Positions 1,751-56,655 of a DNA stretch of 64,000 bases are shown here, one piece after another. The position numbers and the translations under genes are program-made. The first letter of the stretch is position 1, and every line of letters starts with the position of its first letter. This stretch comes from Geosiphon pyriformis uo1 (Eukaryota; Fungi; Glomeromycota): positions 52,703 through 116,702 of the forward strand of contig JAAOMT010000436.1 in NCBI GenBank assembly GCA_016748015.1, in the 5' to 3' direction. Below the pieces are notes generated by a model. It did no database searches, had not been told where the DNA came from, and worked only from the letters and a program-made list of their open reading frames with translations.

Positions 1751-1770
1751 NNNNNNNNNNNNNNNNNNNN

Positions 1771-3564: not shown

Positions 3565-6115
3565 GCCTTTCTAGTAAGCTATCTTTAAATTTCTATTCTT
3601 ATTTCTAGATTTTTTACCAGGCTATTCTTGACATTAAATACTTAGCATTTAATTTTTTTAATTAATTAGTAAACAACAAAAAAATAAAATAAACAAAAAT
3701 AAAAAAAAAATAAAAAAAAAAATAAAAAAAAAATAAAAAATTAGTATTTTGTCAATAGCTATGATCAAGAGCAATTGGTCCAATATAGTTAAGTGTTAGA
3801 TACTATTAACATAAAGTGTTGATAAAATAGAATTAATTAATATTTTTAATCAAATGATAATAATATAGATTTGAATAATAAGTAGATATTTTATTGATAT
3901 TAATGTAATTTTACTTTAAGTTATAAAAAACTATTTTTTGAAGAAAAAATATTGGAGATTTAGAATTTTAATAAATTCTGCCTCTTTTTTGCTTCTAATA
4001 TTTTCACTATATATACATAATTCTTGTTATATAAGATTACATATTTTTTGAACAGTGTATTTTAATTTTTCTAACAGTATATATATTGCTAAATAATATG
4101 TCATAATTTTCTAACAATATGTTCATTGTTAAGTAGTATGTTATAATTTATTAATAATACACTCTTTGCTAAGCAGTATGTCATAATTTACTAATAATAT
4201 GCATATTGCTAAGCAATATGTCATAATTTTCTAATATTGTACTTACTTATTAAGTATTATTCTCTTATTGGTTTATTTTTCTATTTGTTTTTCTTACTTT
4301 TTTTTTGTACTCTTTTCTATGAATAACATTATCTTCTCTTTTAATATTGAACTCTATCAAAATTTTCATTTCAAATTAAGTCTTTTACTTTTTTTTCTAA
4401 TACTGTTTGTTTAATTTTGTTTCTTATTTTTTTACATTAAAAGTTGTTTATTTTTTTTCATTGGTTAATGATTATTGTTTTTATTTTTTGATATGGTAGT
4501 ATTTCTGAATAGTTTTGAAATATAATATATAGTTAGTAAATTGTTTTGATGTATAGTATAGAATTTGTCTTCTTTTTAATAAAATTTCTGAATATTTAGT
4601 TTTTGTCCTAATTAATAATAAAAATATATACTGGAAGTTGTTTTATTTATAGCTTCCAGTTTTTTTTAGTTAATTTTTCTGTTGAAACAATTATTGGTAT
4701 TTTTTTAAAAGTGTTCTTTACTTTTTCTATAATTTTATTTGACCAGTGTTTTGTTTAGTTTTGTAATTATTAATATGAAATAGTTTTTGCTTTTTTCTTC
4801 TTTTTAGTGTTTTGATAGCAAATTGTTTGGTGGTTAATAATAATTTTTATGTCTAACTATTGTTAATTTATAGCTTGAAACAATTATTGTGTTATTATGT
4901 AAATATGATTTGGAATTTTTATCTTTTTACTATTGCTTTTTTCACATATGTTGTTTTTTTATATACTATTTTAATCAATTAATTTGACATGTTTGTTTTG
5001 ATAACTATAATTGATTTCAGATTTCATAAAATCTCATCTGGTTTAAATAATATTTGTTGTATTTCTAATTGTAAAATATTATTAATAGATAATGATGTTA
5101 TATTGTGATATAGTTTTAGTTAATTACTATATATTGTTTTAGTTAAAATTTTGTTGTTCTATCTTAATTTATAAGTTTTGTTTTTTAAAATTTTTTCAAT
5201 GTAAATTAATCTGTTTTATTTGGGGTCAAATCTTCTACTTCATTGTTTTTTTACTTTAATATAATATAAGAGTACTTTGTCTCCAATCTTAAATTTGATT
5301 GGGTTATCTAATAACTAGTTATTATATTATTTTTTTTGTTTTGCTTGTGGCTTTTGTATATTATCAGCNNNNNNNNNNNNNNNNNNNNGTTTTTGCTTTT
5401 TTCTTCTTTTTAGTGTTTTGATAACAAATTGTTTGGTAGTTAATAATAATTTTTATGTCTAATTGTTGTTAATTTATAGCTTGAAACAATTGTTGTATTA
5501 TTGTGTAAATATGATTTGGAATTTTTATCTTTTTACTATTGCTTTTTTCACATATGTTGTTTTTTTATATACTATTTTAATCAATTAATTTGACATGTTT
5601 GTTTTGATAACTATAATTGATTTCAGATTTCATAAAATCTCATCTGGTTTAAATAATATTTGTTGTATTTCTAATTGTAAAATATTATTAATAGATAATG
5701 ATGCTATATTGTGATATAGTTTTAGTTAATTACTATATATTGTTTTAGTTAAAATTTTGTTGTTCCATCTTAATTTATAAGTTCTGTTTCTTAAAATTTT
5801 TTCAATGTAAATTAATCTGTTTTATTTGGGGTCAAATTTTCTACTCTATTGTTTTTTTACTTTAATATAATATAAGAGTACTTTGTCTCCAATCTTGAAT
5901 TTGATTGGGTTATCTAATAACTAGTTATTATATTATTTTTTTTGTTTTGCTTGTGGCTTTTGTATATTATCAGCTGTTTTTTGCCTTTTGTTTTTTAAAG
6001 TTTCTATTAAGTCATATGTTCTTTTTAGTAAAGTTTCTTAGAAGTTAACTTTTGTTATTGGTTCAACTGGATATATATTAATCTCTATTTTGATTAAAAA
6101 TATTGCTGTTTAACT
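3565..6115 (-). mobile_element. Highly decayed relic E of an A/C/D-related Ty3/gypsy element: partial 3' LTR (~3565-4328), PPT, ORF3 and integrase C-terminus
   Basis: 3741-3830 matches LTR text at ~19590 (TTAGTATT.TGTCAATAGC.ATGATCAAGAGC). The LTR ends ...GAATAACA at 4328 followed by the PPT. 5200-6110 resembles integrase 20980-21270. Confidence 0.8.
4060..4245. repeat. ~40-bp tandem repeat (~4-5 copies) in the U3 region of the relic LTR
   Basis: Recurring ATTGCTAAGCA.TATGTCATAATTT.CTAA units. Confidence 0.75.
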
Positions 6116-9100
6116 ATTTTTTTATTTTTTTATTTTAATGAGTGAGGTAGGAATAAATAATGCACTTTCTACATGTGACTAGCCACTTGGGCCAGTCAAG
6201 ACAACACTACACGCCTATATGCACAGAGACCAAATTCTTAACGTCTGAAAAGAATGAACAAAACTTACAAAACCCAAAACTAACCCCAAAAGCTTCAGCC
6301 ACACCCAGCAACCTGACCATACTAGCTGAGAATCTCATAGACAAACCAGAAATTGGCATAAAAGTGGAACTGTCACAAGGGATCAAACCATGCTTTTCTA
6401 TAAAGGCCCAATGTTTGGCACAAACCAACCAGACATTCTTCCAAAATGCAAGACAAAAGTTACACACAAAATTCACAATTTTTTTAGCCCTAATCTTAGG
6501 ATCATTAAAAACCGAAACAGACTCACAACACCAGTTACAAAAAACAAAGCCCTTATACAGAGCAATGCCAACTTCTATCTCAGAGACACAAGAGGCTAAC
6601 AACAATAAAACACATGAAGAAAAGTGAGACAAACCAGAAAGAGCCTCCCAAGCCAAAGCATGAGAGTTCAACAAATGAGCATAAACAGTGGAGTCATGAG
6701 GACAAGAAAAAACATGGTCCGAAATCTCAACATCACCACAGTATAAACACATCACACTGGGGTAGCCTCTATTATACAAATGCTTACACATAGCAACCAG
6801 GAGCCAATGATAGAGGGCTTTCATAAAGTACATTCAAGAGCCAGCTGTATGCATACTAGTAAAACCAGCAGCCAAATAAGAATCAGGGTGCCACACCAGA
6901 GAGGACTTAAACCAATCAATATCAGCATGTAAACCATTCACCATAACCCAAGATCCAGATCCAACTTTCCATTGAACATGATAAACAGAACAGAAAACAT
7001 TATGTACAAAGTGTCTAAAATTTCCAGAAACCGCAATACCATCAGCACTCAGAAAGCATTCACTAATCAAGTGAGGCAGGTGCCAGGCAGAGGCAGCTGC
7101 ATTCTTGGCAAGTGCATTAGCATGCTCATTGTCTAAGATACCCAAATGACTCTTAATCTTAATTCAATTTACATCCAAATTTTTTTGATGAATAACATTA
7201 ACAATATGGTGACACTTGATCCAGCAATAGTTCCTAAACTCTGGATGGAACAGCAAAGACTCTGATATGCATGCATCCAAAGCTGCTTGGCTGTCAGAAA
7301 ACAAGTCAACTGAATGAGAAGAAGGAACACACTCAAGAGCCAAAGTGATGGCTTGTAACTTTGTCAAAGTAAAAGAAACCAGACCAGACACCTCTACATC
7401 CAAACCCATGTCAATGTCCTCAAAAAAAATGGCAGCACCTGCTTTTATGTCAACAGTGCCCAGATCACACAGAGACCTATCCATATGCACAGAAAGACAA
7501 GCAGCATCAACTGTCAGCAGAGTGTTACAAACCATACTAAAACCATGAGATTGACAAACATCAGAATTAGCTTAACTATCTGAAACCAAAGAACTAACAG
7601 AAAAGGGAGCAATACCACCAAGAAAGCAAATGGAGAGATCAAACCAGAAGAAGACTGGATCATGAAGGTCCAGCCTTTTCCAATGCTTAAAGATACTCCA
7701 ACTGAAAACATTACCATTATGGTCACAAAGCTGTTCCACAAAAGCAATTCCATAATGCCTGAGTGAAGAGACATACTTGAAAAAAAAAAGTTCATCAAGA
7801 ACAAGAGACATAGGAATACCACTCCAATGGTGAAATGCGCACACCAGAGAGCCACTTAAAGATAAATTACACCCAAAAAAAATGCAAACTACACCTGCCA
7901 AAAAATTATTTAAGGGGCTAACACCAACACAAGCCAGAAACAGCAAAGAATGATGAGACCACTAGCTGAGAACCTGAATATCATGAGACCTATGAGAAAA
8001 TAAGTGACCCAAAACACCAATGGAATTCACAAAAGTAACAATGGAAGCCGATTTGCCTTTAGCTTGAATCTGTTTAAAAGTTTTTAAATTGTACAAAGAG
8101 GGATGATGAAATACATCATTGGGGAAGTCGTGTGGTAGCCCAAACTTTGACTTTAAGACTTTGCATATAAGAGCATCCCATTTATTACAGACACAAAGAG
8201 GAACGAAACTGAACTGAGTTCTGTAGCTAATAATAGAAAAAAGAACTGCAGATACCAAATACATGCACTGTTTGTCTAATATCGCCTTCCTTAAAACCAG
8301 ATTCACAAAAAACCATATATCCAACTGAGCTTTAGCCAAGCTAGACTTTGAAAAACTCTCAAAAAACAAAAAAATACCCAGATAGTGGTAAGGTTCTCTT
8401 TTTTTGGCAATGAAAATAGACAAGCCACTGATAGTCAAAAAGGGTGTAGCAACCCGGCAGTTGATAGGGATGGCTACAGTCTTATCATTATTGATTGAAA
8501 TGTTATTTAACCTGAAAAATTCACTAGCAACATTGAAAATATGTTGTGTAGCAGTCTGGCTGCTATCTACCCAAATGGTATTATCTACAAAAGCACCAGC
8601 AGTGAAAAAAGAGAAAAGCCCAGTCTGAGACTCAGCATGACCACTTCCAGAAACAAAATGAGAAATGAGCCTGTATTTGCACACACTCTCTTGGTGCTTG
8701 ACTTCACACAGAAAAGGATCATAAAATATGTACCACAGAAGAGGGGAAAAAACTTCACCTTGGTTCAGTCCATTGTGCACCCAATAACCATTGGTCAAAC
8801 CAAAATCTGTTATAACTTGGTTGGTCTGGTCCTTGTAAATACTACCAAAAAAACAAACAAATTTACCACACATTTTGATCCTCAAAAGGCACTTCTCAAG
8901 ATGCTTCCAGCCAACCGAATCATATGCTTTTTGCATGTCCTGCAGAACAAGCCAGAGTTTCCGGTTCTTTTCCAAAACATCCTCAATTACCAAGCCAATT
9001 GCAAAAATAGAAGACTGAGTTGTTATACCCCTTAAAACCAAAAAATTGTTACCATGTAGAACATCATGAGTACTGCAAGCCAGTGAAATTTTATCTGAAA

Positions 9101-10852
9101 GAATCTTGGAGAGAATTTTGCAAGCCATTTTGATCAAGACAATAAAATGAGTGTTTATTAGAACACCTTCCCACTCATAAGGCTTGAAAATCATCGAGAC
9201 CCAAGCCTCCTTCCAAAGGCTAAACACAGATTTAACAAACAAGCAAAAATTCAAAAGCACCAAAAGCATACTAAGAACTAAAATGTCACAATGTTTCTAT
9301 AATTTATTTGAAATACCCAAGAAATTAGCAGCTTTGCCATCGGGCTAGTTAGAGACAACTCTAACCAATTTATCATAATCAATCATGCCCATCACGCCAG
9401 AAAAAGCATCATTATACACATAATTCAAAGATTGATACTGTCAAGACCAGTTGTTAAGAATATCAAGAACCACCCTGTACTTTTTAGTCCAGCCCTTCAT
9501 GATCTTATTCATCTTAGACTTCACTGGAGCTGGTTCCAAAATCAGCTCATCATCTATTATTAAATGATCCAAAACAACTTTGCGGAAAGAATATTCCAAA
9601 ACACTCTTAATAATATGGTCCTTGTCCAACTCAAAGCTTTTCATCCTCTTGTCAATTGCCAATCTGATCTGGGACTCTTAAGCATGGCTTGATTCTAAGA
9701 GTTTAGAAAAATGATATGATTTTTTAATCTTGGCCAAGATTGAATGGATGATATTAAAATGAAAACCCAAGAGAAACAGAGACTTTACAACAGAGGCATT
9801 GGCAGAATCAAAACCACCCTATACATCAAGCAAAGACACAAATTCTTTGTAAGCAACCAGACGAAAGGCCTTAACAATCTTTAACACCAAAAGTTCCAAT
9901 TTGTGAAATCTGGAAGACACCTTATTGAAGACTTCATCATAGCTCTTGAACCATATCTTCTTGAAAATAGACTCAGCTGACAAACACATTACCTAGTGAA
10001 GAGCATACTACATAGCATTCAAATCCGAACTTTTCACAACAACAGAGAATTCATCAATAAACATAATAGCATTCACCACTGTTTCTTTCCTAAACCCAAT
10101 CTATTTAGCATTATTAGCACTCTTGTAATTGTACTTCCAATAATCTTTATTTGCTTGCTTGCACAGTAAGAACAAGTGTGTATTCAAAAAACCACCAACA
10201 CCCACAGAAACAGAAACAGCCCTATAATTAGTATCAAAATAATCACCAACATTGACCACTTCATGATTCAATATCGCATTAACCAGACTTGAGGATACAA
10301 ACACATAGTCAATGGTCTTAAAGACACTTTGAGAATTGTTCTATGTTGCTTTCTTTTCAGACGCACTCCCACCCAAGAAATTAACTAAACCAAGATTGAA
10401 ACATTTTTTAAAGCTAGCACACTTATGAGAGCCATCTTCATTGAAATCTCTACCTAAGATAGTGAAAAAAAATTCATTCACAGTCTTTGCAATCATAGAA
10501 TTAATATTGTTTATCTAAAAAAAACGTACTGCCAGAGATGCCCCAGCATACAGCCCCAAAATTGACACAGAAAGTTTATTTTTGAAGAGTAACTTAATAG
10601 AAAAAAGCTGGCCAGGAACTTCCAAAACCTTACACATGTGCCAAGTCAAAAAATTGTTCATAATAATTGTGACACCAGAATCCAAGTGACCAGCATCCAT
10701 ATCCGAAGTGAAAACTCGGATACTGCCAAACTTGTTTATGATCTACGGTTAGATCTTACCTTTCAGTTTAGTTTTAGTAACAATTGTAATCAAATTGTCT
10801 ATCTTTTTATGTCAACAAACAATATTATCCTGTTTCACAGGATTGTTCATGC
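6116..10852 (-). mobile_element. LINE-1: non-LTR retrotransposon with degraded ORF2 (APE endonuclease, RT, RNase H, C-terminal Cys/His); 5' part missing
   Basis: RT motifs VLQDMQKAYDSV, GLNQGEVFSPLLW and AGAFVD[N]T. RNase H motifs LQAITLALE, LFSDSQAALD, NEHANALA. C-terminal CLYCG..E..DHVFSC. EN motifs ILGLYAG and IDYMFVS. A-rich tail at ~6116-6136. Confidence 0.9.
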
Positions 10853-12475
10853 TGTTACTAGAGGTTTTTGGTCTCTTTTCTTAAATGTTGTTGATGCCTG
10901 TTTGCTGTGAATTCACGTTTTCTGGATGTGGTTAAACCTCCAGTACTGAATTTATCTTCAGATTATCTCCTATAATTTGAACTGCTGGGCTTATAAGTGG
11001 AATGGCCAATTCCATGCCAGTTACTTTATATAGTTATATTGTAGTAAACATCAACTCTTTCCCAGGAATTGCTCATCTGAAAGCTCACTAAATGTGTAGT
11101 TACTTTGCTGTGAAAGTCAACTTTTCTACAGGAATCTCGTCTGTAGGCTACCTTAATGATTATAATAAGAAAATAAAAAGAAAATAAAAAAAATGTAAAA
11201 GAAATAGAATTCTGTCAAGAGAAATGTTTTCAATTCAGGCCTGGAGTCACTAACAGTTTATTGAAATTGGTAGCTAATCAATTTCAGAATGTTAGTTGGG
11301 TTTTGAAAATTTTTCAAGTACAATAATTAAAAAATTTGGTTTTTCAAATTTGTTTGATATTTATTTCTCTTTTGTGTGTGTAGAAATAATTCTAAGTGAT
11401 AAATCTAAAATAAGATACATTTTTTCAAAGAGAGAACCTCTTCTTTTATACAACTTGTTGTAACACTATTCTATGAACTTGAACTTTGCTCTTTTCTACA
11501 ATTTTGTTAAACTAAAGATACATTTTGGCAAACTACAAGTTATTTCTGCGAACTATTAGATATTTTGGTGAACTATCAATTATTTCAGCGAATTTCTTCA
11601 AATTTCGACAAACTTTTTGAATGTTACATAGTTCGAGGTATTGCATGATTGATCATCACAATTAGGTTACATTTGTGTTATGTACAAATTGGATTATTAA
11701 TTAAATGATAATTTTGGACATTTTGCTAATATACTAAGTGATAATTTGAAACGATAATATATATTAATTAATGATAGGAATTATAAAGATAATTTCATGC
11801 TAAATAATATCTCTAATTTTGTCTGAAAATTGTTGAAATTTCAGTTCTGTGAGCTTTTCAATGTATTGAATCTTCAAAGACTGTAAAATTGGGTTTTGTA
11901 GGGCGTTTTCACAGGTGTAAAATAGGTCATAAAGTGCAAGAGCAGCTCTGAGCCTGTAGTGACTGTTTGTTGATCCAGCTGTTGTCTTGAATTTATTGTG
12001 GAGTTGTTTCTGAATAGCTTTTTTTGAAAGATTTGCTGTTGTAAATTCCAGTTTTTGTTTGTAGAGTGTTTTTCCAATGTGGAAATATCTATAGATTGGA
12101 GGATATTCAGTGTTTTTCTCATTGAGACACAGTTGAAGTCTTTGTTGAATTGTAGCATTTGGTGGAATACTAATCGGAATGAGCATTAAGTTTTCTCTTA
12201 AAGCAAGCTTTAAAAGTTCTGGCAGGTGAATTCCAGAATAACTTCTTGTGTTTTTCTTATATGGGTGATATTTTCGTGAATTTGGGGCTAAATTTGTGAC
12301 TACTTTTGTTTAGGTATAATTAATGTGGTTTCCAGTAACAGTAATGAATAATTCGGGTATTGTTTTTAAAGCTAACATTAGTTTTTGGAATAATTGTTAA
12401 ATGTTTTGAGGAATAGTCATTATAAGAGATTTGAAATAAAGAAAATTATTTTTGGTGTATGGGTTTTTATGTTAT

Positions 12476-12478
<3 letters not shown>
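10853..12478 (-). mobile_element. Partial family-B LTR element (3' LTR plus ORF3) abutting the LINE-1 endonuclease
   Basis: Starts TGTTACTAGAGG like the LTRs at 22772 and 31608, and aligns to 22772-24500 apart from a 99-bp deletion. Confidence 0.9.
11800..12420 (-). pseudogene. Family-B ORF3, unknown function (207 codons, in-frame stops, 33-codon deletion)
   Basis: ATG at 12420 gives MTIPQNI*QLFQKLMLALK...YRYFHIGK...RAALALYDLF...; homologous to 23722-24441. Confidence 0.8.
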
Positions 12479-12533
<55 letters not shown>

Positions 12534-12535
12534 TT

Positions 12536-12575
<40 letters not shown>

Positions 12576-12580
12576 CTTTC
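12479..12580 (+). repeat. ~100-nt poly(T) tract at the B/A junction
   Basis: Seen directly. Corresponds to the shorter T-rich tract of LTR A at 41783-41819. Confidence 0.95.
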
Positions 12581-12953
12581 CTTGTGTTGTTTTGTTGTTG
12601 TATACTAATTGATTAAGGATTAGAAGTGCTGAGTTATTGATGTCATGGATAGCCTGATAAAAGACCCAAAAATAAGGGTAGAATTTTATATATTATCAGA
12701 TAGCTTACTAGAAGGGCACAACTGCCAGACTAAATCTGGCCTCCATGCTAAGAAAAAAATTGAACAGAATTGCAATTCCAAAAACTATTACAAATACAGT
12801 CGAATTTCTGTTCATTATACAAAGAACTTCACCAAAACCTTTCAGATTGCATAAGACCTTCAGATTACCAATATTAACAGAAATCAATAGCTTTTGAGCA
12901 CCAAGTTACAGGTTTGTTATTTATTCTCACACCAGAAATAATCACTTGTAACA
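12480..12953 (+). repeat. Truncated 5' LTR of A
   Basis: Ends CACTTGTAACA, as does the 3' LTR at 42190. Confidence 0.9.
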
Positions 12954-12955
12954 TT

Positions 12956-12970
12956 TGGTGCTTCCTGTGA
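12956..12970 (+). promoter_or_regulatory. PBS of A (consensus from D/C: TGGTGCTCCCTGTGAG)
   Basis: TGG lies 2 nt after the LTR. Complementary to a tRNA ending ...GGAGCACCA (elongator Met or Ile-UAU are candidates; unverified). Confidence 0.85.
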
Positions 12971-13015
12971 AGTATAATCCTACAGAAAACCAGCATCAAC
13001 AAACACCATCTAAAA

Positions 13016-16000
13016 GTGGCAGAATCAGAAAACATAGGAGCAAACCATTTAGGATTCACAAAATCCTTATTTTAACACTATTGTCAACACTTGGAATTAA
13101 ACCACAATCATACATCCGCCAAATCAGCCTTTAATTTCTACATTAATGAAAAAATTTCCTCTTTGTTAGGAACACCAGTGAATACTAAAGCAGCCAGAAA
13201 AACTTTCTACAGAGAATTAATTCAAAATACCAACCTGCCAACAAATTACAATTTTGCCTCCATCATTACTAAAATCAACAAAAAAATTGAACATTACATC
13301 CAACAAAGATATTTAATTACTTACACCAGTAAAGGCAAAGAAAAACTACAAACACCAGTGGTAACACCCAAAAAGATACAACCACCCACTTGGAAAAAAA
13401 CAAGAGTTGAATTACCAACTGCCCTATTCTATTACTACACACTGGAAAGTGCCATTAATATAACATCAGCAAATGTATCCATATCAAACGCGACATCAAC
13501 ATTTAGATAATTCCTATTCCAAAGTAAACAAAAAAAACAGAGTTATTAGAACCATATGGCGAATATTTTGAAGGATTTAAATTGCAATTACTGACACCAT
13601 CAGGAATTTGATCACTGCTGCCTCAACCAGACTTTGGAACCACTACCCCATGGGAACTATCTGAAGAAGAAAAGGAAAAAGAATCAAAAGATCAAGAATT
13701 TACTTACCAAAACCCAATCACTGAAAACCTGGAAGTTAAAACCCCAAATCTTTAAACTCAGCAAAATCTAAATCTAGAAAATTCGGAAATAGAAACTCCA
13801 AATTATTAAAGGCAGAACAATCTAAACCCTGAATTAATTAATTAGCAAAACTTACCTTCAGTAATTGTCATCAATCAACCACCAATTAATCCAATAGCCG
13901 AACCCATATAGCAGCCACTTCAATTATCATCCCAACAACCAGTACCACAACAACCACTTCAACAGCCCCAGCAACCTATAGTACCAATGGCCTATGCACC
14001 AATTGCCAAATTAAAAAAATTCACCAGTTAAGAGGATGATGCTCAAGCTTGGTTGAATGATGTCATTAAAGCAATCATGGCAAACAATTGGAATGATGAC
14101 AGAGCTCTTCAGGCAATCCCATATTTCCTTCAAGATATTGTGGATTTGTGGTACCAAAGCTTAGCCACAAAACCTCAAACATTTGACGCATTTAAGCAGG
14201 AGTTCCTAAAATATTTCAGTAATAATAACAGTATTAACCATTTGGTAAATACTTTTACTACCATCAAACAAGAGAACACTGAAGCCATTACCACGTACTT
14301 GGGACAATTCCATAGATGCCTGCGCCAGATCCAAGCTATTAATGCTGATTATTTCACAGTGGCCCAAATTTTAAATCAGTTTATCAGAGGCTTATACAGT
14401 AGTATTCTCCAGCGCATACGTCCACTACACCCAGCAAATTTACAAGCAGCCATCACTAATGCCAAAAATTTTGAAGCAGCTGAACTCGAAGCTAACCATG
14501 CCCAAGCCATTAATCTAGTAATAAATAGATTATCTGAATTGGATTCTAAATTGAAACAATTCAGTGATTCTATCAATCAAAAATTAGAGGGATACTTAGC
14601 TGACAATTGAGCAATCTATTAACCACCACAATGATACAACAATCAGGGAAACTTTAGTCATGTCCAAAATCAGCCACATCCATCATTTTCAGCCAATCAA
14701 CAGTGGCAACAAGAAATGCATGTTTGCTGCTATTGTGGTAAACAAGAACACATACAAGTTGATTGCCACCAGCATTTAAATAACCAATGATCAGGAAATC
14801 AATATTGAAATCCCAATTGCTGGTTCCCAGTTCTGAGTTCTTAGCAAAATCAAGAACAATACCAATACTTACCTCATTATGTACCAATGACGCAGCAATC
14901 AATTTATCAATCTCTGATATATCAAGCTCAAATTTATCAACCACAGCCACAAGTAATTTATCAACAACCACAGCCACCAATAATCTATTAACCCCAACAA
15001 ATTCAAACACTGCCCCAAAACTTATCACCCAATGGAACACAAAGACCGAGAATGGCTCAACAGAGCTAGAAATTGGCAATGGTAGTTTATCAGCCAATCC
15101 CCAGTTCTTCACAGCAACCATCTGGATTATGCCAGTAGAATTTGGGTACTGATCAACCCCAGAACCTGAATTTCCAAAACTATTTAAGTCTCCTGATTAC
15201 CCCAGAAGACACCTCAGCCAATAACCTGAAATCTGCCCAAAAACAACTACTCACCAGTAATATCCCACCTGCTACTATCACCAAAGATAAGTCCTTGACT
15301 GCTATCTTCCCATTCGAATTTAAGGAAACAATTACAACGCTATTATTTAGTGGAGCTGCTCTTGAAGCCAAACCAATCACCATGATGTACACGGATGCCA
15401 AAGTTGATGAACAATCTATCAAATTGATCTTTGACAGTGGTTCAGCAGGTAGCATTATCACATGACAACTCATGGACCAATTAGGTCACCAAGTTGATCA
15501 CACTGTCAGTGCCAGAATCTTTACAGCCGATGGAGTGACCAAAATGTCTATCGGTGAGATAGATGAATTCCCATTTGAAGTCAATGGCATCATCACTCTT
15601 ATCAAAGTCTTGGTGATAAAAGCCACCCAATACCAAGCTTTAGTTGGTAATAACTGGCTGTCCAAAACCAATGCCGTTCTGGACTGGATAATGCAAGAGC
15701 TTTAACTAAGCATCAATGGTCAACACACACATGTGCCAGCCACATGTGGCCACTTCAAAGTTCTGTCAAGAGAGGAACCATTAATAAAGCTGAAAGAAGA
15801 AGAAAAGAAGTCTATCTGGGAAGCTTACCAAGTCTTGTGAGCCAACAATGACCACAATGAATTGCCACCCATACTCTTATGGAATGACAAAGGAAAGAGA
15901 AAAGAAGAAGAAAAACTTACCTGGAGAACAAACCAAGAATTGTGGAGTGATAACGGCCAAAGTGAACCAGCCACTGAATAAAGTTGGGAAGAAAAGGGGA

Positions 16001-19000
16001 AAGGAAAAGAACAGGAAGAGGAACCAAAACAAACCACCTCCTCCACTCATATTCTATATGTAACACTATCTCAAAATGCTTATCGTCGACCCAAACTTGT
16101 ATGTGTCAATTGTGGCAAGAAACTGTCAACAATAGACACATGCTGTAGTAAGAACGAAGAATAGATGACAGTAACCAAGTACTACTGTTGCCCATGCATC
16201 CTTGAATGTGATAGATGACAGCCAAAAATAGGAAAATGGGATGGTACTTTGTGTTTAGCTTGTGGAGATACCCTCTTAGATAAAGGGATGTAAAAAGACA
16301 TTCCTGGAAGAGGAGGAGCATGTGATGAGACATGCCAATACACTATCCTAATCAACAACTGAGTATGAAAGGGAACTCCCATCAACGATGTCTGGAAACA
16401 AGCATTAAGATGCCTAGAAAGATATTCACATGACGAAGATAAGATCTAGAGAATGGCATATGCTATGTCAGAAGGCGCTACAACAGAGGAGCTGAGAGAA
16501 ATTAAAAACAACCTACTATCCCTACCTGAGCCCAAATATATCCAAATCTTTGATGTTTTTGGCAACATCGAAGACGAATTAAAGGAATTTCATGAGCACT
16601 TCCAGCAACTAGCACTCACAAGAGAAGAACAAGAAGAGCACTTAGCACAGCTAAACACCTGGCTATGTGACCACTGTTTAATTCCATATGACTTTCAATA
16701 TTGTAATAAGTATGACCTCATTTACAATCCACCACCATGCATGATCTACACGATCCCTAAAGAGGAAGAACCAATCAGCAATTGTACATCAGAATCAGAA
16801 TTGCTGATCAATTATGATTTAAACTCCGACAACAATGACAACAACAACGGTTTAAGCTCCATTCATAATGGCAATAACAATAACAATGATTCCAACTCTG
16901 ATCCAAACTCTGATACAAACTACAAACAATATATTGCACTACCAAATATCTCTAAGAAGCAGGAATTGAAATGGTATAGTGACAATGGGGAAGGTATTAT
17001 GTCAGAATACATGCATGATACTGATGCAGGGTTTGATCTGAGATATCCAGAAAAAGATGCTATCAAATTGAAGCCAAATGCATGAATATGCATTGATCTG
17101 AGAATAGCTCTAGAGATCCCAGCAACAATCATGGTTCTGTTAGCATTTAGAAGTAGTTTAGCAAAAAAAGAAATTAATATTAGAGGAGGAATAGTGGATG
17201 CAGAATATACAGAAAATATCAGTGCCATGCTACAAAATGACTCAGAAAAGGCTTACACTATTGAGCCAAATGAAAAGATAGCACAGGCAATATTTCTGCC
17301 ACTAGTCAAAATAGCTAACTTAATGTCAGTAAGAACAAGAGAAAAATTAGAGATAACAGCAAGAGGGATACAAGGATTTGGATTAATGAGTAAAATAGAT
17401 GTACCAGTTAATATGGTGGAGAAAAAAATTGTTGGTCAAGAAATTTCCATTCCACCATATAGCCAGTACATGCTAGCAATAGAAAAAAAGGAAAAAGAAC
17501 AGCATCAGATTTTTGAAGCAAAACTGACTCTTTGTGAATCAGGAGAGATTAGACTCATCAATCTCCACATACCAGCCAAAAATTACAGCCACATCAAAAT
17601 TTTTATCTACAACAACACAAAAAATGTCATAGTGATACCAGCCAGAACCACCATAAGATACTTAAACACTGAAATAGAGGATCAACCACCAAACCCCATT
17701 CTAGACTTTCCACAGCTTTGTAAATATGTCGACATTACATCACAAACAATCTATGGACGAGATAAATGTTATTTGCTCTAACTAAAACAATTAGAACAAA
17801 TGAACATAAGAAATCTGGACCCACTACAATGTATGCAGCTCAAGATGTTACTCAACAATTTCAATGACATCTTTGCCAGTGAAAACAAATTTGGCAGAAC
17901 TGACATCATCTAACATCAAATCAAGACTGGAGATGCAATGCCAATCAAACAGTAAGCATACAGAGTACCACCAGCCAGCCATAAAATCATCCATCAAGAG
18001 ATCAACCAAATGCTTGACAATGAGTTAATTCAGCTATCAATGAGTCCATGGTTGTCACCAGTAGTATTTGTCCATAAGAAGAATGGAAAGATCTGATTTT
18101 GTGTAGACTACAGAAAACTAAATAGTATAATTTGTGGAGACAACTATCCAACTCCACAGATACAAGAACTATTCGATGCTTTTGGTAGAAACAAATAGTT
18201 CTCAATGTTAGACTTAGATAGTGGTTACTGACAAGTAGCCATGGATCCAGCCAACAAAGAAAAAATGGCATTCACCACAAAAGAGAGAAACTTTGAGTTT
18301 GAAGTTATGCCATTTGGCTTAACCAACGCACCAGCCACTTTCCAATAGCTAATGAAAATTGTTTATACTGGCTTATTGTGGAAATTAGTAGTTATATACT
18401 TGGACAACACCAATGTATTCTCAAAAACATTTGATGATCATCTTCATTATCTTTAACAAGTGTTTGAAAGACTAAGAAGAATAGAACTAAAGTTAAATGC
18501 AACAAAGTGCTTCTTTGGCAAGACAGAACTCAAATTCTTGGAACACATAGTCAGCAAAAATAACATCAAAACGGATCCAGAGAAAATAGAGATAGTAAAA
18601 AACTTTCCAGTACTGACCAATATAACAGAACTAAAATCATTCTTGGGATTTGCCAGTTATTATTGACATTTTATCAAGAACTTTTCCAAGATAGCGCAGC
18701 CACTCAACCAACTGCAAACCAAGAATACAAAATATGAATAGACAGAAAGTCAACAAAAAGCTTTTGATATTCTGAAAAGAAAGCTCATTTAAGCTCCAGT
18801 ACTGATCTATCCAGATTACAGCAAACCATTCATCATTACTACCAATGCATCCGGCCAAGCATTAGGAGCAGTACTATCTCAGAGAGGACCAGATGACAGA
18901 GAACATCCAATAGCATATGCCAGCAGAGGTTTAACACCAGCCAAAAAGAACTATGGAACACCAGAACAAGAACACTTAGCGATATACTGAGCAGTCATGA

Positions 19001-22183: not shown

Positions 22184-22771
22184 TTAGATTTGTTTCATTC
22201 GCGATAAACCATCAGCATTTCTATTGTCTTTTCCCTTTTTATAATGTATAGTATAATTATATAGTGCAAGTGCCATTTTCCATCTTGACTGTCTTCCATT
22301 TTCAAATTCTTGTTTTTGGAGTGATGTTAATTCTTTGTGATCTGTGTATACTTCAAACTTCTGGCTCAAGTATTTTTTCCATTTCATGACTGCCCAGTAT
22401 ATTGCTAAGTATTCTTGTTCTGGTGTTCCATAGTTCTTTTTGGCTGGTGTTAAACCTCTGCTGGTATATGCTACTAGATGTTCTCTGTTGTCTGGTCCTT
22501 TCTGAGATAGTACTGCTCCTAATACTTGGCCAGATGCATTGGTAGTGATGATGAATGGTTTGCTGTGATCTGGATAGATCAGTACTAGAGCTTGAATGAG
22601 CTTTCTTTTCAGAATATCAAAAGCTTTTTGTTGACTTTTTGTCCATTCATATTTTGTATTCTTGGTTTGCAGTTGGTTGAGTGGCTGCATTATCTTGGAA
22701 AAGTTCTTGATAAAACATCGATAGTAGCTGGCAAATCTCAAGAATGATTTCAGTTCTATCATATTGGTTGA
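22184..22771 (-). pseudogene. RT connection/RNase H of D
   Basis: ASYYRCFIKNFS, TNASGQVLGAVL, NADGLSRMKQI*. Confidence 0.92.
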
Positions 22772-23082
22772 TATTACTGGAGGTTTTTGGTCTCTTCTTA
22801 GCTCTTGTATGTTTGTTGTAATGCTGTTAATTCACAATTATGGGAAGTGTTTGAACCTCTGATAACTGAATTTATTTTCAAATTATCTCTTATAATTTGA
22901 ACTGCTGGGCTTATAAGTGGAATGGCCAATTCCATGCCAGTTGCTTTGTATAGTTATGTTGTAGTAAACGTTAACTCTTTCCCAGGAATTGCTTGTCTGG
23001 AAGCTCACTAAAATATGTAGTTACTTTGCTGTGAAAGTCAACTCTTTTACAGAAATCTCATCTGTAGGCTATTCTAATAATT

Positions 23083-23114
<32 letters not shown>

Positions 23115-24441: not shown

Positions 24442-24563
24442 TATAAGAGATTTGAAAATAAAGGAAAATTATTTTTGGTGTATGGGTTTTTATGTTATTT
24501 TTGTTTTGTTTTTGTGAGATTGTTCCTAAATTATAAGGAGATAACTATAATAATAAATTTAAA

Positions 24564-25912: not shown

Positions 25913-25962
25913 TGTTTGTTGTTTTTGTTACTGCTAATTCGAATGAGTGTTGGTTTTGTGTT

Positions 25963-28900: not shown

Positions 28901-31562
28901 AGTTTCTTGTGGCAGTCCTTGCATTTGAGTGGAATGTAAGGGTGTCATTTCTTTGGTTCTGGTTTAGAATATGGGATGTTCTATTCAGAGGTTTCTGGTT
29001 CCTCTGAATATGAGTTTGTTGCAAAATATGTTTGCTCAGTTTCTTCAGCCCAGTTAGATGTTGATTCAAGTGCCATAAATGTTTTGACTACAGGCTTTTC
29101 TTTTTCTTCTTTAAATTCAAAAACAGAGGTTTTTTCTGATTGTTTGTTGAATGTACCACAAGTAATGGGTACTCGGACATGTTGTCCTTGATAGAAGAGT
29201 TGTAATTCTTGGGTTTCCCAGCTTAATTTTGCATTGGCTTTTTGAAGCCAATCATTTCCGACAAGGGCTTGATACTGGGGTGCGTCTATTATAAGAACTT
29301 TGACTGGAATGGTGATTTCATCAAGAGTGAATAGAAAATTGTCAATTTCTCTTACTGGAGTCTTTTTCATGTCATCAGCAGTAACAATTACTGTTTGAGC
29401 TGATCGGTCAACATTTCTCTTTAACTGTTGCATTAACTGGTAGGTAATGATGCTTCCGGCAGATCCACTGTTTAGGATCAAGTGAATTGCCTTTCCTTTG
29501 ACTTCTGCTTCAGTGTACATAGCAGTGATTGCTTTTTGTTTGTTGGCGGCTGCATTGCTAAGCAGGAATGATGACTCATTTGCTTTGAACTCAAAAGGGA
29601 ATATATCTGAAAGGTTGGCATTTTCAGCAATTCTGGCTGGTGGGATTGTGATAGGAATATAGGAAGGATTTGTTGTCGTGCTACAGCTCTACCTTCTGAG
29701 AGTGCAGTATGGTAAAAATCCTGTTCTTCAGGTATTGTAAGATAGTTAGGTTGAGTATAATAATGAGTGGGTTTTGGCTAAGCTGGATTTCAGGGAACTA
29801 ATTGGTTATTTGGGTTGATTCTGTTGTTGTTTGTTGCGAATTAGTTTTGTGGTGCAAATTGGTTTTGTTGAACCAATCTTTGAGCAAGTACTTGGTAATG
29901 TTGAATGGGTTGTCAATACTGTTGTTGCATTGGCTGTGAAGCAGGTTGATAGTAGTCAGTTTGATATTGCAGTCTTGGTGGATAGTAAGCTGATGATAGT
30001 GGTAGTTGATAATAAAATTGTTGTGGTGAAGGGTAATGTTGATTACTCTTGTTTTGTTGGTCTTGTTGTAGCTTTCTACAATCTCTTTTCCAGTGGCCAG
30101 GGATTTCACAGTAATGGCAATTCTGAGGCTGGTTATTAGAGGATGATACAAAATTGTTTTGATTCTGTCTTTGGGGTGGTTAATATCTTTGGAGTTGCTG
30201 TTGTTGTTGGTTGGTGAAATAGTTTTCGACTTTCTTTGTGAGTTGGTTAATTTTCTCTTTAGCTGCTGAGCTGGTCTCTCCAATGGCTAAGTTCACAAGT
30301 TTTGTATAATTGGCTTCTTCCATGGCCATTTCATATCTCTTTGCATGCTGAATGGCAGAGTTTAAATCTTCTGGGGCATGTGGACAAACCTTTTTAATCA
30401 GTTTATTCTTTAAACCAATGATAAATTGATCCAAAATTTGAGCATTGGAATAATAATCATTAGTTTCAAGTTGGTAAATTTGTCTGAGAAGTTTGTTGAA
30501 TTTCCCAATATAAGTCATGACAGATTCGGAGAGTTCTTGTTTGATATTGCAAAAATGATTTTGAAGTGTGATTGAGGTGTTGTTATTGGTGAATTGTTCT
30601 AAGAAGGCAGTTTTGAAAGCTGTCCAGTCATTAAAAGGGGTGGTCAAGTTTTCGAACCATTCGCCTGCTATTCCTTTGAGAAAGTAGAGAATTGTTTTTA
30701 ACATTCTGGCAGCATTCTATCTATTTGTATCTCCAGCTTTAGTAACTTGGTCGAGCCATTCTTGGAGACTGGTCTTAATATCTTCTCCATTAAATTCAGG
30801 GATTTTTGCAATGTATGCTGTTATTTTGTCTTCTTCATTTTCACTGTTTATTGATTCTTCTTCAGATATTTCAGAGTCGTTTTCTTTATTCGCTCTTGTC
30901 TCAGAGTGTTCACTTTGATTTTCAGCTAGAAAATCAAGGAGATTGGAACTAGTTTAAAGGGGTTCTTGTTGTCTGGTGGGACTTCTGGGTGATGTAAAAT
31001 CTTCTAGTCTTGCAAATCAATTTAAGAGTAAATTAGGTGTTTGTGTTTGTGCTTGTGCAAGTAAAGCTGGAAAAGGTGTGATAGTAAGTAGAAGTTTTGA
31101 ACTGGTTCCTTGTTCAGGTGTTTGTAAGTGTTTGGCAGTTGTTTTTGGTAGTATTGAAGTATTTGGGGTGGTTTTTGAGTATTGCTTCAATTTTTGTTTG
31201 TCTTTGTTGCTTGTTTCTGTCTCTGATTCAAAATCAATAGAGTATTGAAACTGCACTGGATATGTTTCTTTACAGTACTTGATAATGTTAAAATTAAGTT
31301 CTTGAAAGTAAGTGGCAAGTGTTTCACTGTTAAGGTCTTCAGTTTCCAACTGTGAATAGTGTACTAAATTATTGTAAAGATTGCTTCTAACTTCTGAGAT
31401 ATTGTAATTTCCAAAAAAATAATTGTTGATGCAGTTTTTAATATATTGGTATACTGATTTCTTGACAACTTCAATTCCGTCTAGAATGTTGAATCTTTGT
31501 TTGCAGTGGGTGTAAATTGACTGGTAATACTCTAGAGTTGTTGCATCTAGTATGGTCACCAC
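25963..31562 (-). pseudogene. gag-pol: Polyprotein of B (N-domain, Gag, CCHC, PR, Cys-rich, dUTPase, RT, RH)
   Basis: CHYCEIPGHWKRDC, LILNSGSAGS, GGIIDAGYTGD, PWASPVVLV, VYLDD; ends CLSRMRQD*. Confidence 0.92.
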
Positions 31563-31607
31563 TTTGAAGTTGTTTTTGCTGTGTTGTTTCTGTGGGAGAG
31601 CACCAAA

Positions 31608-35500: not shown

Positions 35501-38206
35501 TCACGTGTATTGGCTGTTTTGGCTAAGTTGGAGTTTTTGTGTGTTCCAGTTGAGCATTGCATTGGTTTTGGACAATCAGTCATTGCCAATGAGAGCTTGG
35601 TACTGGGTTGCTTTCATTACTAATACCTTGATTGGTACAGTGATGCCGTTGATTTCAATGGATAGATTGTCAATCTTGCCAATGGGAGTTTTGGTTGCTC
35701 TATTGGCTATTATGATTCTGGCACTGACAACATGATCAACTCAGCAACCTAATTGGTCCATAAGTTGTCATGTGATAATGCTGTCTGCTGATCCACTATC
35801 AAGAATGAACTTGATAGAATGGCCATCAATTTTGGCATTGGTGTACATTGCTGTAATGGGTTTTTTCTTAATAGCAGTTCTGCTGAACAAAGAAACTCCT
35901 GATAGTTCCTCAATTTTAAATGAGAATATGGCTGCGAGTGACTCATCTTCTGTGATGATAGTTGGTAGGATATTGCTGGTGAGTGTTAATTGTTGGTTGG
36001 ATCCCGAATTGGTGTTGGTGACATCTTCTGGGGTAACCAGAAGACTTAAATAGTTCTGGAAATTCAGGTTTTGGGTGGTACTAGTACCCAAATTCCGAGA
36101 ATGCAATCCTGATGGTAAGTTAAAAGAACTGGGGATCAGTTGGTGAACAACCATTGCTGATCTCCAGTTTTGTGTGATTCTAGGTCTGGGATGGCCTGAT
36201 GTCATATTAACTGAATTTTGGGATGGTGTCTGAATTGATTGGGGTTGATAAATTATTTGGGGTTGTGGCTAATAGATTATTGGTGGCTGCAGTTAATAAA
36301 TTTAAGGTTGATATACTAATGGTTGATAGATTGGTGGCTGTATTGTTGGCAGGTAAGTAGTTTGATCTTGATTTGGAGAATGATTCAGAGTTTGAAATCT
36401 GCAATCAAGGTTTTGATATTGATTTCCTGATTGTGAATTGTTGCTATAAAATCTGCAGTCTGCTCTTATGTGTCCTTGTTTACCACAGTTGTGGCAAACA
36501 TGCATTTCTGGCTGCCATGACTGATTAGGTACTGCTAATGATGATGATGGATGTGACTGATTTTGGAAATGATTTGTGTTTCCAGGATTATTGCATTGTT
36601 GTGGTGGTTGATAAATTGCTCGATTGTCAGCTAAGTATCCCTTTAATTTCTGATTAATTGAATCACTGAATTGTTTCAATTTGGAATCCAATTCAGATAA
36701 TCCATTCATTACTAGGTTCATGGCATGAACGTGATTGGCTTCTAATTCGGCAGATTTAAAATCTCTGGTGTGTGTGACTGCGTCCTGGAAAGTGGCTAGA
36801 TGCAATGAGTGTACATATTACAGGATGCTACTGCACAGGCCATGGATAAATTGATTGAGAATTTGTGGTGCTGTAAAATAATTAGCATCAATTGCTTGGA
36901 TTTGTCACAGATTTCTATGAAAGTGTCCTAGATATGTGAAAACTGCTTTAGTTTTTCCTTGTTTAATTGTAGTGAAAGTGTTGGCTAATCTGTTGATGCT
37001 ATTGTTATTGCTAAAGTATTTCAAAAATTCTAATTTGAAGGTGTTAAAATCTTGGGGTTTGTCAACCAGGCTTTGATACCATGAATTTACTGTATTCTTG
37101 AGAAAATAAGATATGGCTTGCATGGCTCTGGTGTCATTCCATCCATTGGCTGTAATGGCTTTTTTTACATTGTTCAGCCAAACTTGTGCATCATCCTTTT
37201 TACCAGTGAATTTGTCGAGCTTTGCGATTGGTGCGTACGCCATTTGTTGTTGTTGCTGTGATGGAAGTTGTTGTTGTTGTTGAGGTGGTACTGGAGGTGG
37301 TTGTTGAGTTTGTTGATTTGGTATTTGGATGGGCTGACCAATTGGTTCAACTGGTGGTTGATCGATGACAATAACTGAAGATAAGTGTTGATTAATTACT
37401 TTGGGGTTTTGATTTTGCAGTGCTTAAATATTCGGAGTTTTGATTTCCGGATTTTCTCGCTGAGTTTGAACATTCGGGGTTCCAAATTCCGGGTTTTCAA
37501 AGATTGGGTTTTGGTAAGTAAATTTTTGATCTTCTGATTCTTTTTCCTCTTCTTCTTCAGATAGTTCTCATGAGGTAGTGGTTCCAAAGTCCCGTTGAGG
37601 CGGCAATGATCGAATTTCTGATGGTGTTGGTAATCATGACTTAAATCCTTCAAAATATTTGCTGTATGGTCCTAGTAGATCTGTTTTTCTTTGTTTACTT
37701 TGGAATAAGAATTGTCTGAATGTTAATATTGCGTTTGATGTGGGTGCACTTGATAATGTTATATTGATGGCGCTTCTCAGTATGTAGTGATAGGATGGAA
37801 CAGTTGGTAATTCAACTCTTGTTTTCTTTTAAGTGAGTGGTTGTATTCTTTTGGGTATTACCACTGGTGTTTGTAGTTTTCCTTTGCCTTTACTGGCATA
37901 AGTAATTGGATATTTTTGTTGGGTGTGATGTTTAATTTTTTTGTTGATCTCAGTAATGATGGAGGCAAAATTGTGATTTGTTGGCAGGTTGGTATTTTGA
38001 ATTAATTCTTTGTAGAAAGTTTCCCTGGCTGATTCAGTATTCACTGGTGTTCCTAACAAAGAGGAAATTTTTTTATTGACATAGAAATTAAAGGCTGATT
38101 CAGCGGATATATGATTGTGGTTTAATCCCAAGTGTTGACAATAGTGTTGAAATAGGAATTTCGTGAATCCTAAATGGTTTGCTCCTATGTTTTCTGATTC
38201 TATTAC
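32590..38206 (-). pseudogene. gag-pol: Polyprotein of D (N-domain to RT)
   Basis: MAYAPIAKLDKF, CHNCGKQGHIRADC, FILDSGS, dUTPase motifs, [12 protein letters not shown]. Confidence 0.92.
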
Positions 38207-39107: not shown

Positions 39108-39209
39108 ATGGAAATGCCGACAGTTTATCGTGAATAAGACAAATCTAAGAACATTTCAACCCAAAAATATAACAAAACCAAAACAATACTCACAAAAATA
39201 TAACAAAAA

Positions 39210-40586
39210 ATGAATACACAAAAATATCAACAACTTCAACATTATATAGATACTCAACAGTTCAAGGAGAAATTATCTCAACTGGAACAAAAGAAGATCA
39301 AACAACAATCCAAATATTTTATCACCCACCAAAATATACTTTATCAAAAAAATAGAAAAAATTCAAATCAGCCAACCAGAGTAATTACAGAACCAGAAAA
39401 GGAAACAATACTGTTCAATATGCACTCAGATCTAACTGCAGGACATTTTTATAAAGAAGCAACTATGGAAAGAACCAGAAAGAGATACTATTGGCCATCA
39501 ATGTATCCAGACATCATACAATATGTACAAAATTGTGATGCTTGTCAAAAAAGAGGAGGAACAAGACCCAGCAAATCATTAAGACCAATCAAAGTGGGAC
39601 AACCATTTGACTGCATTGGAATCGATTTAGTCGGACCATTGACAATTACCAGCAGAGGCAACAGATATATTGCAGTAGTCATAAACTACCTTATAAAATG
39701 GCCAGAAGCAAAAGCAATTCAAAGAGCAGATGCAGAATCCATTGCCGAATTTGTCCATCAAGATTTGATTTGTCGACATAGATGTTCAAAAGAATTATTA
39801 TCAGACCAAGGAACCTATTTTGTGAATAAAACATTAGCAGAACTAAGCCAAAGATTCGGAATTAAGAGACCACTATCATCACCATACCATCCACAAACCA
39901 ATAGATTAGTTGAAAGATTTAATAGAACATTATGTGAAGCAATAGTGAAACTCAGCCAAGAAAACCAAGACAAATGGGATTTGTTTATATCATCTATACT
40001 ATTGGCTTATCAGACAATGAAGCAAGACACTACATAAGCAACACCATTTGAATTAGTATACAGTAGAACAGCAACACTACCAGTCGAGATAGAAGTTAAC
40101 ACTTATTCAACAGAACCAATAACTGTAGACAATTTTTAGGAAACATTACTAAGAAGAACATATGATTTGATGGAAACTCTAGAAAACAAGTGACAAAGAG
40201 CAGCTGATAACATTAAAAAGGCACAAGAAAAACAAAAAGAAAGGCATGATAACCAACTACCAGACAAACCAGTTGAATTCAAGATTGGAGACAAAGTATT
40301 TTTACATCATACTAAAGCAGAAAAACAATGGAGTGGGAAATTTGACCCCAAATAGAATGGACCATTTTACATAGAAAAAATTCTAAGAAATGGAGCTTAC
40401 AAATTAAGACTGGACAACAGAATCTTAGCCAAAGCAGCACATGGTGATTGACTGAAACCATATCACCAGATAGCATTAGCATCTACCAATAACATTTCAC
40501 AACTGGGAGTACAAAGAATACTAGTTCAACCAGATGAGATTCCACAAGACTGGGAACCAATCATAATCATTAGACCAAACACATAA
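39210..40586 (+). pseudogene. Integrase of A, separate 459-codon ORF with in-frame stops after 40037
   Basis: MHSDLTAGH...CDAC; D(GIDLV), D(SDQG), E(VERF); FKIGDKV...GPF...GAYKL; no chromodomain seen. Confidence 0.93.
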
Positions 40587-41288: not shown

Positions 41289-42190
41289 TGTTATTCATAG
41301 AATATAAAAAATATAGTATTATTAGTCAGTAGATATTAGCCAATCAGATGAAGATGTAGTAAATATGGAATTCCAGGATTCCTCTCATAGGAATTGCAGG
41401 ATTTCAGGAATTTCAGGATTCTCTGACGAGAAATCGCAGGATTCCAGAATTCCAGGATTCCTCTCATTAGGAATCACAGGATTTCAGGAATTCCAGGATT
41501 TCTGTTGCAAGGAATTGAGAAATTGAGGAATCTCAATTATGTATATATAGCAGTAAGATTAGAAGCTGAAAAGACAGATCTCAGAAGTTTAGATTTCTTT
41601 AAGCAATCTTCTACATCACAAATATCAAATAAATAATTATTTACTATCTCAAATTTCTTCCCAACTATCAACATTTCTTGTTGATAATAGCACATATTTA
41701 ACCATACTGGAACAATAGCTCTTGATCATGGCTATTAATGGGATACAAATCAAAATTACCTTGGCTTATTTTCTTTATTTCATTTTTTTTTTTCTTTTTT
41801 TTCTTTTTTTTTCTTTTCTTGTGTTGTTTTGTTGTTGTATACTAATTGATTAAGGATTAGAAGTGCTGAGTTATTAATGTCACGAATAGTCTGGTAAAAG
41901 ACCCAGAAATAAGGATAGAATTTTATATATTATCAGATAGCTTACCAGAAGGGCATGACTACCAGACTAAATCTGGCCTCCACGCTGAGAAAGAAATTTA
42001 ATGGAATTGTGATTCTGAAGACTATTACAAATATAGTTGAATCTCTGTCCATTATACAAAAAACTCCACCAAAATCCTTCAGATTGTATAAGACTTTCAG
42101 ATTACCAACATTAACAGAAATCAATAGCTTTTGAGCACTAAGTTATGGGTTTGTTATTTATTCTTACACCAGAAATAATCACTTGTAACA
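41289..42190 (+). repeat. 3' LTR of A (902 bp); PPT at 41274-41288
   Basis: TGTTA...GTAACA termini; GGAATTCC/GGATTCC array at 41366-41530. Confidence 0.93.
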
Positions 42191-56400: not shown

Positions 56401-56655
56401 CCTAATGATTGATACAAAACTGTAGTTTTTTGGTAGGCTAATATGTTGAAATAATTCTGTATAAAAGTTTTTTCTTGCAGATTCAATGTCAACTGTTCCT
56501 CCTAAGCAGTCTGTAATTTTATTATTGACATAAAAGTTAAAGGCTGATTCTGCTGAGAAATGGTTATTGTTTAATTTTAATGGTTGGCTGTACTGTTGAA
56601 ACAAAGATTTGGCAAATTCTAAATGGTTTGCTCTTATAATTTCTGATTCTGCCAC
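50444..56655 (-). pseudogene. gag-pol: Polyprotein of C
   Basis: Colinear with A and D; ends NRLSQMRQV*. Confidence 0.9.

Follow-up and report, generated by a model that had tools for sequence, protein, structure and literature searches.

We analysed a 64,000-nt stretch of the Geosiphon pyriformis genome (the window), a decayed nest of Ty3/gypsy retrotransposons in which the capsid frame is preceded by a long AUG-free extension. The extension probably starts at a GUG codon in strong context, with most ribosomes scanning past it to the capsid AUG, an arrangement that would yield a short Gag(-Pol) as the main product and a long one in smaller amount. Judged from the sequence, the feature is largely confirmed as real and would represent a known translation strategy in a new setting. 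Five lines of evidence support this reading: a GTG in three element families, a conserved context around it, a leader that is neutral with respect to frame, depletion of ATG in the extension and retention of the capsid Met. An earlier note on this DNA had proposed GUG initiation that either gives long and short Gag forms or throttles the polyprotein; the five lines favour the two forms, and the claim as a whole is partly supported.

The window is filled by nested long terminal repeat (LTR) elements, with copy B lying inside D, D inside A, and C apart. Their LTR pairs are 87–92% identical and have the ends TGTTAC..GTAACA, and a primer-binding site (PBS) starting with TGG follows the 5′ LTR. Copies A, C and D make up one family (family A), copy B represents a second (family B), and a third (family C) was found by search. 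All four copies are dead, each with 2–7 stops within the extension. G>A (563) and C>T (553) are the commonest changes among the three-way differences between A, C and D, and CpG decay, which converts ACG to ATG or ACA, bears on every ATG count given below. Pfam matches follow the Ty3-type order of Ty3_capsid, Retrotrans_gag, protease, dUTPase and integrase; Pfam matches to reverse transcriptase (RT) were confined to a different element of the window (7965–9296), and the end of RNase H was read by eye. LTR elements account for 41.2% of the G. pyriformis genome (PMC11952901). The features discussed are collected in Table 1.

Table 1. Positions in the window of the features of copy A and of the corresponding sites in the other copies
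Feature	Position	Strand	Remarks
5′ LTR of A, 3′ part only	12526..12953	+	89% to 41766–42190; ends TGTAACA at 12953
Candidate 74-nt GT..AG intron across the PBS	12912..12985	+	GT at 12912 resembles a donor, CAG ending at 12985 an acceptor
PBS of A	12956..12972	+	in-frame TGA at 12968–12970
A/C-rich leader of A	12971..13015	+	45 nt; lengths among subfamilies differ by non-multiples of 3
GTG of A, likely long Gag(-Pol) start (predicted)	13016..13018	+	AAA-GTG-G; A at −3, G at +4
N-domain, about 110 residues	13016..13345	+	five predicted helices; one stop in A; no Pfam match
Low-complexity linker	13346..13986	+	predicted disordered
First conserved ATG (MAYAPIAK), capsid start	13987..13989	+	ATG in A, C and D; likely short Gag(-Pol) start
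Capsid of A (Ty3_capsid, Retrotrans_gag)	14032..14610	+	Pfam E 3.8e-12 and 1.8e-11
dUTPase piece of pol, A	17086..17781	+	in phase with the GTG
GTG of copy B, second family	31560..31562	-	in frame with the capsid codon, decayed to ATA at 30824
GTA of copy D	38204..38206	-	probably a GTG changed by G>A; in frame with the capsid ATG at 37243
Integrase of A, own frame	39210..40037	+	ATG 61 nt past the RNase H stop (39146–39148)
Conserved upstream AUG (uAUG) of family A, 3′ LTR of A	41728..41730	+	precedes a T-tract and a branch-point-like motif
GTG of copy C	56653..56655	-	AAA-GTG; capsid ATG 989 nt on, at 55666

The extension spans 321 codons in family A, 246 in family B and 293 in family C. Differences between C and A/D number 18, 19 and 42 at codon positions 1, 2 and 3, and over 82 of the 110 codons of the N-domain the dN/dS of C against the A/D pair is 0.15 (Fisher P 5e-9). 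By this codon-level evidence, the extension is protein-coding and under purifying selection. The earlier note had read about 320 Met-free codons before MAYAPIAK in copy A. No Met is found there in the coding frames between the GTG and the capsid ATG, but the stretch is not a single frame, since A alone has lost 1 nt from an A-run (near 13529–13533) and it also has seven stops. The distance from the site to the capsid start is 971 nt in A, 738 nt (in frame) in B and 963 nt (in frame, with four stops) in D, the only copy in which the whole frame of about 320 codons is seen. We do not read the A-run near 13530 as the site of a programmed −1 frameshift, as C and D are in frame at this point and contigs show the extra A.

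The N-domain is common to both families of the window, as had been claimed (BLASTP 22% over 122 amino acids, E 4e-7), and is 27–30% identical between the third family and the window copies, giving 22–30% across the three families. A structure prediction of the copy C sequence with a 45-sequence alignment agrees with the helical domain proposed earlier, yielding five helices with an AlphaFold pLDDT of 85 and a pTM of 0.79. In the model of a near-complete family-C Gag, this folded domain recurs, followed by an extended linker of low confidence and then the capsid helices (overall pLDDT 54). The linker, described before as rich in P, Q and E, is rich in Q, P, T, E and S. The N-domain has no match in Pfam, a PDB sequence search returned nothing for it or for the capsid piece, and fold searches gave no significant match, a result that does not establish a new fold; Foldseek found none at E ≤ 0.001, and the best match by VIA was an unrelated helical chain (Z 7.0, rmsd 3.4, 104 residues aligned). 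No signal peptide or membrane segment was found in the extension, in which the maximum Kyte–Doolittle value of a 19-mer is 0.73–0.92, and 0.29–0.40 near the N terminus. The named homologues of the N-domain are all gene models of one species, G. pyriformis. Protein scans of viral and metagenome contigs and a pattern scan of metagenomes, which are sensitive to close relatives only, returned no relatives beyond it; two viral pattern matches proved unrelated on inspection.

The motif AAA-GTG-G reported by the earlier note in copies A, C and B, and the GTA in D, were all seen. To sample other copies, the proteins of public gene models were used as a proxy for codon identity. The stored set comprised 410 partly overlapping proteins (the best 120 of 142 matches, the best 120 of 422, all 69 of 69, and 130 representatives); four window-derived entries were excluded, and the site was placed by motif match 308 times. 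Such models are a biased sample, picked for open frames and carrying invented introns. Many of them, P0005 included, merge host genes (for example, a small GTPase) with decayed element pieces via such introns, and the fused models often supply an AUG to the GTG-started domain.

Among the matches listed, the 308 residues at the site were V265, M29, L12, I1 and S1, with V120/M18/L4 in family A (n = 142), V100/M10/L4/I1 in family B (n = 115) and V45/L4/S1/M1 in family C (n = 51). The consensus over many copies is GTG in three families and not ATG. The Leu residues look like splice joints of the gene models, and many of the 29 Met residues are model starts. A G>A change at the first position turns GTG into a Met codon and other Val codons into Ile codons. 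The 37 other Val columns contain V 2140, I 286 and M 30 among the matches listed, whereas the site has 29 Met to 1 Ile; this excess of Met, the opposite of that in the other columns, indicates that the site codon is GTG. Among the same matches, internal Met at the site tracks decay, with KM 2 versus KV 102 and NM 4 versus NV 8, the latter where the GTG lies in a CpG. Codon bias does not account for the retention of GTG, which makes up only 14 of the 66 Val codons in the pol segments. The pattern at the site fits a GTG that is decaying by G>A rather than an ancestral ATG. Its surroundings are likewise conserved among the matches listed: the residue before Val in family A is K in 102, T in 9, N in 8 and S in 1 of 120, so that in 119 of the 120 the codon ahead of Val (K, N or T) has A as its first base, at −3 of the site, and the residue after Val is mostly Ala in all three families. 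The site thus has the near-cognate codon, purine at −3 and G at +4 of a leaky-scanning design. GUG supports appreciable initiation, needs a purine and a G at these positions, and is usually part of leaky scanning (PMC3542737). A stable hairpin about 14 nt 3′ of the start, an optional enhancer, was not seen in the four decayed copies (z −0.7 to +0.4).

The leader between the PBS and the GTG is CAA-rich, as first described, G-poor (3–4 G in 45 nt) and unstructured (minimum free energy 0 to −1.6). The earlier note had the frame closed by a TGA inside the PBS; this holds for A, C and D, 45 nt upstream of the GTG, and fails for B, whose frame continues without a stop across the PBS and into the LTR (open reading frame (ORF) from stop to stop, 31017–31667). 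Among the matches listed, the leader peptide meets the Val in three frames, in the proportions 89/12/4 of 142 in family A (37 unclassified) and 28/9/10 of 115 in family B (68 unclassified). Some of these shifts may be post-insertion slips in A-runs; repeated identical leader peptides point to differences between subfamilies. A leader that shifts in frame before a fixed −3/+4 context suggests that the coding constraint seems to begin at the GTG. The PBSs, at 12956, 56715, 38266 and 31605, share their first nine bases between both families and then diverge, and that of family A presumably resembles the 3′ end of elongator Met tRNA.

ATG is rare in every frame of the extension. The observed and shuffled counts are 4 versus 11.2 in A, 4 versus 13.1 in C, 5 versus 11.5 in D and 2 versus 7.9 in B, each below dinucleotide shuffles (four of four copies, P 0.003–0.01), and in the pooled extension ATG is the most depleted triplet (15 versus 43.9 expected). 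The next 4 kb show no such depletion (357 versus 366.9 expected). None of the nine ATG sites in the extension of A, C and D is common to all three copies; shared out-of-frame ATGs return within 50 nt past the capsid ATG, and 3–11 ATGs per kilobase bin are common to the three copies across the next 7 kb. The path from the weak start to the capsid AUG is thus free of AUG except at two ambiguous spots in the gene models of family C, namely one column with M26/T16, read as ACG decay, and one G/E-C junction with a possible out-of-frame ATG. The depletion of ATG in all frames of the extension is the signature expected of ribosomes that scan a coding region to reach a downstream AUG (PMC3542737). It is less likely that the GUG serves solely to throttle the polyprotein, as this would need no removal of out-of-frame ATGs over 0.7–1 kb.

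The capsid Met behaves differently from Met elsewhere in the extension. We scored Met over 288, 240 and 293 columns with at least ten sequences in families A, B and C, respectively. Among the gene models listed, Met in extension columns with at least 15% Met pairs with Thr or Ala, like decayed ACG; the sole exception, a column beside the family-B capsid Met, is that Met moved by one codon. At the capsid start, the models listed have M10/I1 in family A, M37/I7 in family C and M63/A27/T12/I8 in family B, with a further M32 one column earlier. The pairing with Ile in three families indicates that a true ATG is kept at this position.

These observations suggest how the elements may be translated. 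Ribosomes would probably scan a capped LTR transcript through its AUG-poor leader, some of them initiating at the GUG and the others going on to the capsid AUG. Initiation at near-cognate codons ranges from 2 to 30% (PMC3542737). Initiation at either codon, and the ratio of the two, is a likely inference from the sequence. From the GTG to the end of RNase H, across protease, dUTPase and RT, the phase stays the same with no shared frameshift, and both forms would therefore be Gag-Pol-type polyproteins. The long form could co-assemble through its capsid domain and display the five-helix domain in the cytosol on a flexible tether of 140–210 residues. We infer only weakly that the N-domain is a module for targeting or an adaptor, comparable to a matrix domain and required at low abundance, a role we regard as doubtful. 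It is conceivable, though we hold it tentatively, that protein ratios in these elements are set by initiation alone, with a long Gag-Pol that starts at the GUG and carries a new family of helical domain, a short Gag-Pol from the leaky-scanned AUG, a separate integrase cistron and possibly a PBS-removing intron, together an independently evolved counterpart of glyco-Gag.

In both families, integrase and RT/RNase H are read in different frames, with a stop at the end of RNase H and, some 60 nt further on, an ATG that opens the integrase frame. This ATG is present in A, D and B and has decayed to ATA in C. The junctions lie at 39146–39212 in A, at about 25900–26000 (- strand) in B and at matching places in C and D, and no ATGA stop/start overlap was seen.

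Alternatively, the GUG might be the sole start, with the capsid Met internal (for example, at a protease site) and the weak start lowering the output of a single polyprotein. The uninterrupted phase from the GTG through RNase H would suit such a design, as would the C at −3 of the family-A capsid ATG, which is unfavourable to leaky scanning as we propose it, and a GUG can serve alone, as in NAT1 (PMC5714202). This explanation leaves the absence of out-of-frame ATGs over 0.7–1 kb, and their return after the capsid ATG, unaccounted for; moreover, one B-type subfamily shifts the Met by one codon and yet retains the capsid-start position. We consider it unlikely.

Another explanation dispenses with a non-AUG start: an AUG exon in the LTR could be spliced across the PBS onto the extension. 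A CAG lies a short way past the PBS in both families, family A contains the 74-nt GT..AG stretch of Table 1 and a conserved ATG in U5, and a family-B LTR frame (MELAIPL..., 53 codons) reaches the end of the LTR and is fused in frame to the extension, via a 35-nt gap, in several gene models. However, the distance from the acceptor to the GTG occurs in all three frames, the family-A uAUG is followed by a variable T-tract and meets stops within 12–41 codons, and the conserved A at −3 is left unexplained. The ‘Met’ of the family-B frame reads M solely where a model begins (26 of 31 cases); its internal occurrences read T (2), A (1), K (1) or N (1), so this first codon is likely a decayed ACG. Splicing of this kind is an unlikely source of the start. 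Creation of an AUG by splicing at AAG|TG was also rejected for the N-V subfamily, which lacks that AG. In the contigs, positions 12982–12984 show no variants at 2%, and 12985 shows G>A at 3.7%. Removal of the candidate intron would leave an mRNA that could not be primed.

The family-A ATG in U5 lies in strong context about 200 nt past a TATA-like box and is kept in five of the five LTRs that cover the site, a sixth LTR fragment having ATA at its place; most other U5 ATGs resemble CpG decay. It opens an upstream ORF (uORF) of 12–41 codons, so plain scanning to the GUG requires that it be spliced out or bypassed. Given its place ahead of the T-tract and branch-point-like motif, the uAUG may be intronic. 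In family B, three of three LTRs have an ATG 32 nt from the TATA-like box, near the expected transcript start.

The conserved uORF of family A also lends itself to a further scenario, in which ribosomes reach the extension by reinitiating after the uORF, by shunting, by entering internally on the A/C-rich leader, or through some near-cognate codon other than this GUG; because integrase forms a cistron of its own and has a separate ATG, non-standard initiation of some kind is likely in these elements. The other near-cognate codons of the leader, however, sit upstream of its length-variable stretch and cannot share the frame, and the simplest landing point for reinitiating or internally entering ribosomes would again be the GUG, so that the route would change more than the site; we consider this scenario improbable. 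Decay of an original ATG to this GTG, or a non-coding nature of the extension as mere leader DNA, is largely refuted and highly improbable: every copy is decayed and Met occurs at 29 of the 308 sites among the matches listed, but Val outnumbers Met there 9:1 despite the preference of gene callers for Met, the most frequent changes are G>A and C>T, and the dN/dS of the N-domain, the protein similarity across three families and the confidently predicted fold all argue for a coding extension.

The reading we prefer, GUG initiation with leaky scanning, has parallels in other systems. The earlier note had likened the extension to the glyco-Gag (gPr80) of murine leukaemia virus (MLV), and the likeness holds for the translation strategy, an in-frame extension of Gag lacking an AUG. 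It does not hold for the protein. MLV glyco-Gag starts at CUG and its extension carries a signal peptide and is glycosylated and displayed at the cell surface, whereas the Geosiphon elements have a GUG and an extension with a maximum 19-residue hydropathy of 0.7–0.9. MLV is a gammaretrovirus with env; here we are dealing with a fungal retrotransposon that has a Ty3-type capsid, and a Pfam scan of 19 ORFs returned no env family. The extension of 246–321 residues, with its predicted folded domain, has no homology to glyco-Gag that we could find. The Geosiphon elements are thus, by analogy, similar to glyco-Gag in translation only and not members of that group.

In Ty1, of the Ty1/copia superfamily, p22/Ty1i is made from an internal transcript with AUG codons, and this short form is a restriction factor. 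Ty1 is likewise a retrotransposon with long and short Gag-derived products (PMC5408680). Rice tungro bacilliform virus (ORFs I–III, about 895 nt kept free of other AUGs) and the CUG coat-protein extension of furoviruses similarly combine a non-AUG start, a long AUG-free stretch and a downstream AUG (PMC3542737). Unlike the Geosiphon elements, these plant viruses use AUU or CUG, and tungro virus has separate ORFs and shunting. Neurospora cpc-1 has conserved non-AUG starts with A at −3 and G at +4 and an extension under purifying selection (PMC5487733); cpc-1 is a host gene of Ascomycota with ACG, AUU and CUG starts that were experimentally shown, whereas the Geosiphon GUG start is predicted from sequence. 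The Gag-PR-dUTPase-RT order is shared with PosPlaTy3-5, a dUTPase-bearing fungal Gypsy element (PMC2864245); the passages on it mention neither a non-AUG start nor an extension of Gag. In the open-licence literature we found no description of a non-AUG Gag start in an LTR retrotransposon, nor of dUTPase-bearing LTR elements in Glomeromycotina.

Non-AUG Gag extensions are known from gammaretroviruses and, if our reading is true, fungi of this lineage acquired the strategy independently. Our reading would also reveal an accessory domain so far left without annotation, since methods that look for an AUG miss it or bury it in false spliced models, and offer a natural test of GUG initiation in Glomeromycotina with thousands of copies.

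Several further observations concern the LTRs. Both LTR families have a TATA-like box 600–650 nt from the LTR end, an AATAAA about 86–100 nt later and, after this, a T-tract with a branch-point-like motif and an AG, resembling a 5′-leader intron. Examples are found at 41728–41870 (+), 57142–57020 (-) and 38717–38590 (-) in family A, and in the family-B LTRs at 31607–32590, 22771–23754 and 10853–11825 (-). The U3 of family-A LTRs (for example, 41370–41520) contains degenerate tandem repeats of about 20–30 nt whose copy number varies between LTRs. The 5′ LTR of A stops at a poly-T of about 100 nt (window 12470–12575), upstream of which lies family-B internal sequence (11815–12490 matches 23836–24513); truncation at the poly-T next to foreign sequence indicates that this LTR lost its promoter part by deletion or through an assembly join. 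Elsewhere, a 586-nt direct repeat (97%) at 4783–5974 surrounds an N gap (5369–5388) and is likely an assembly artefact, and a 316-codon frame at 962–1912 (+), outside the elements, matches HSDR_N weakly (E 4e-4) and falls short of the curated cut-off.
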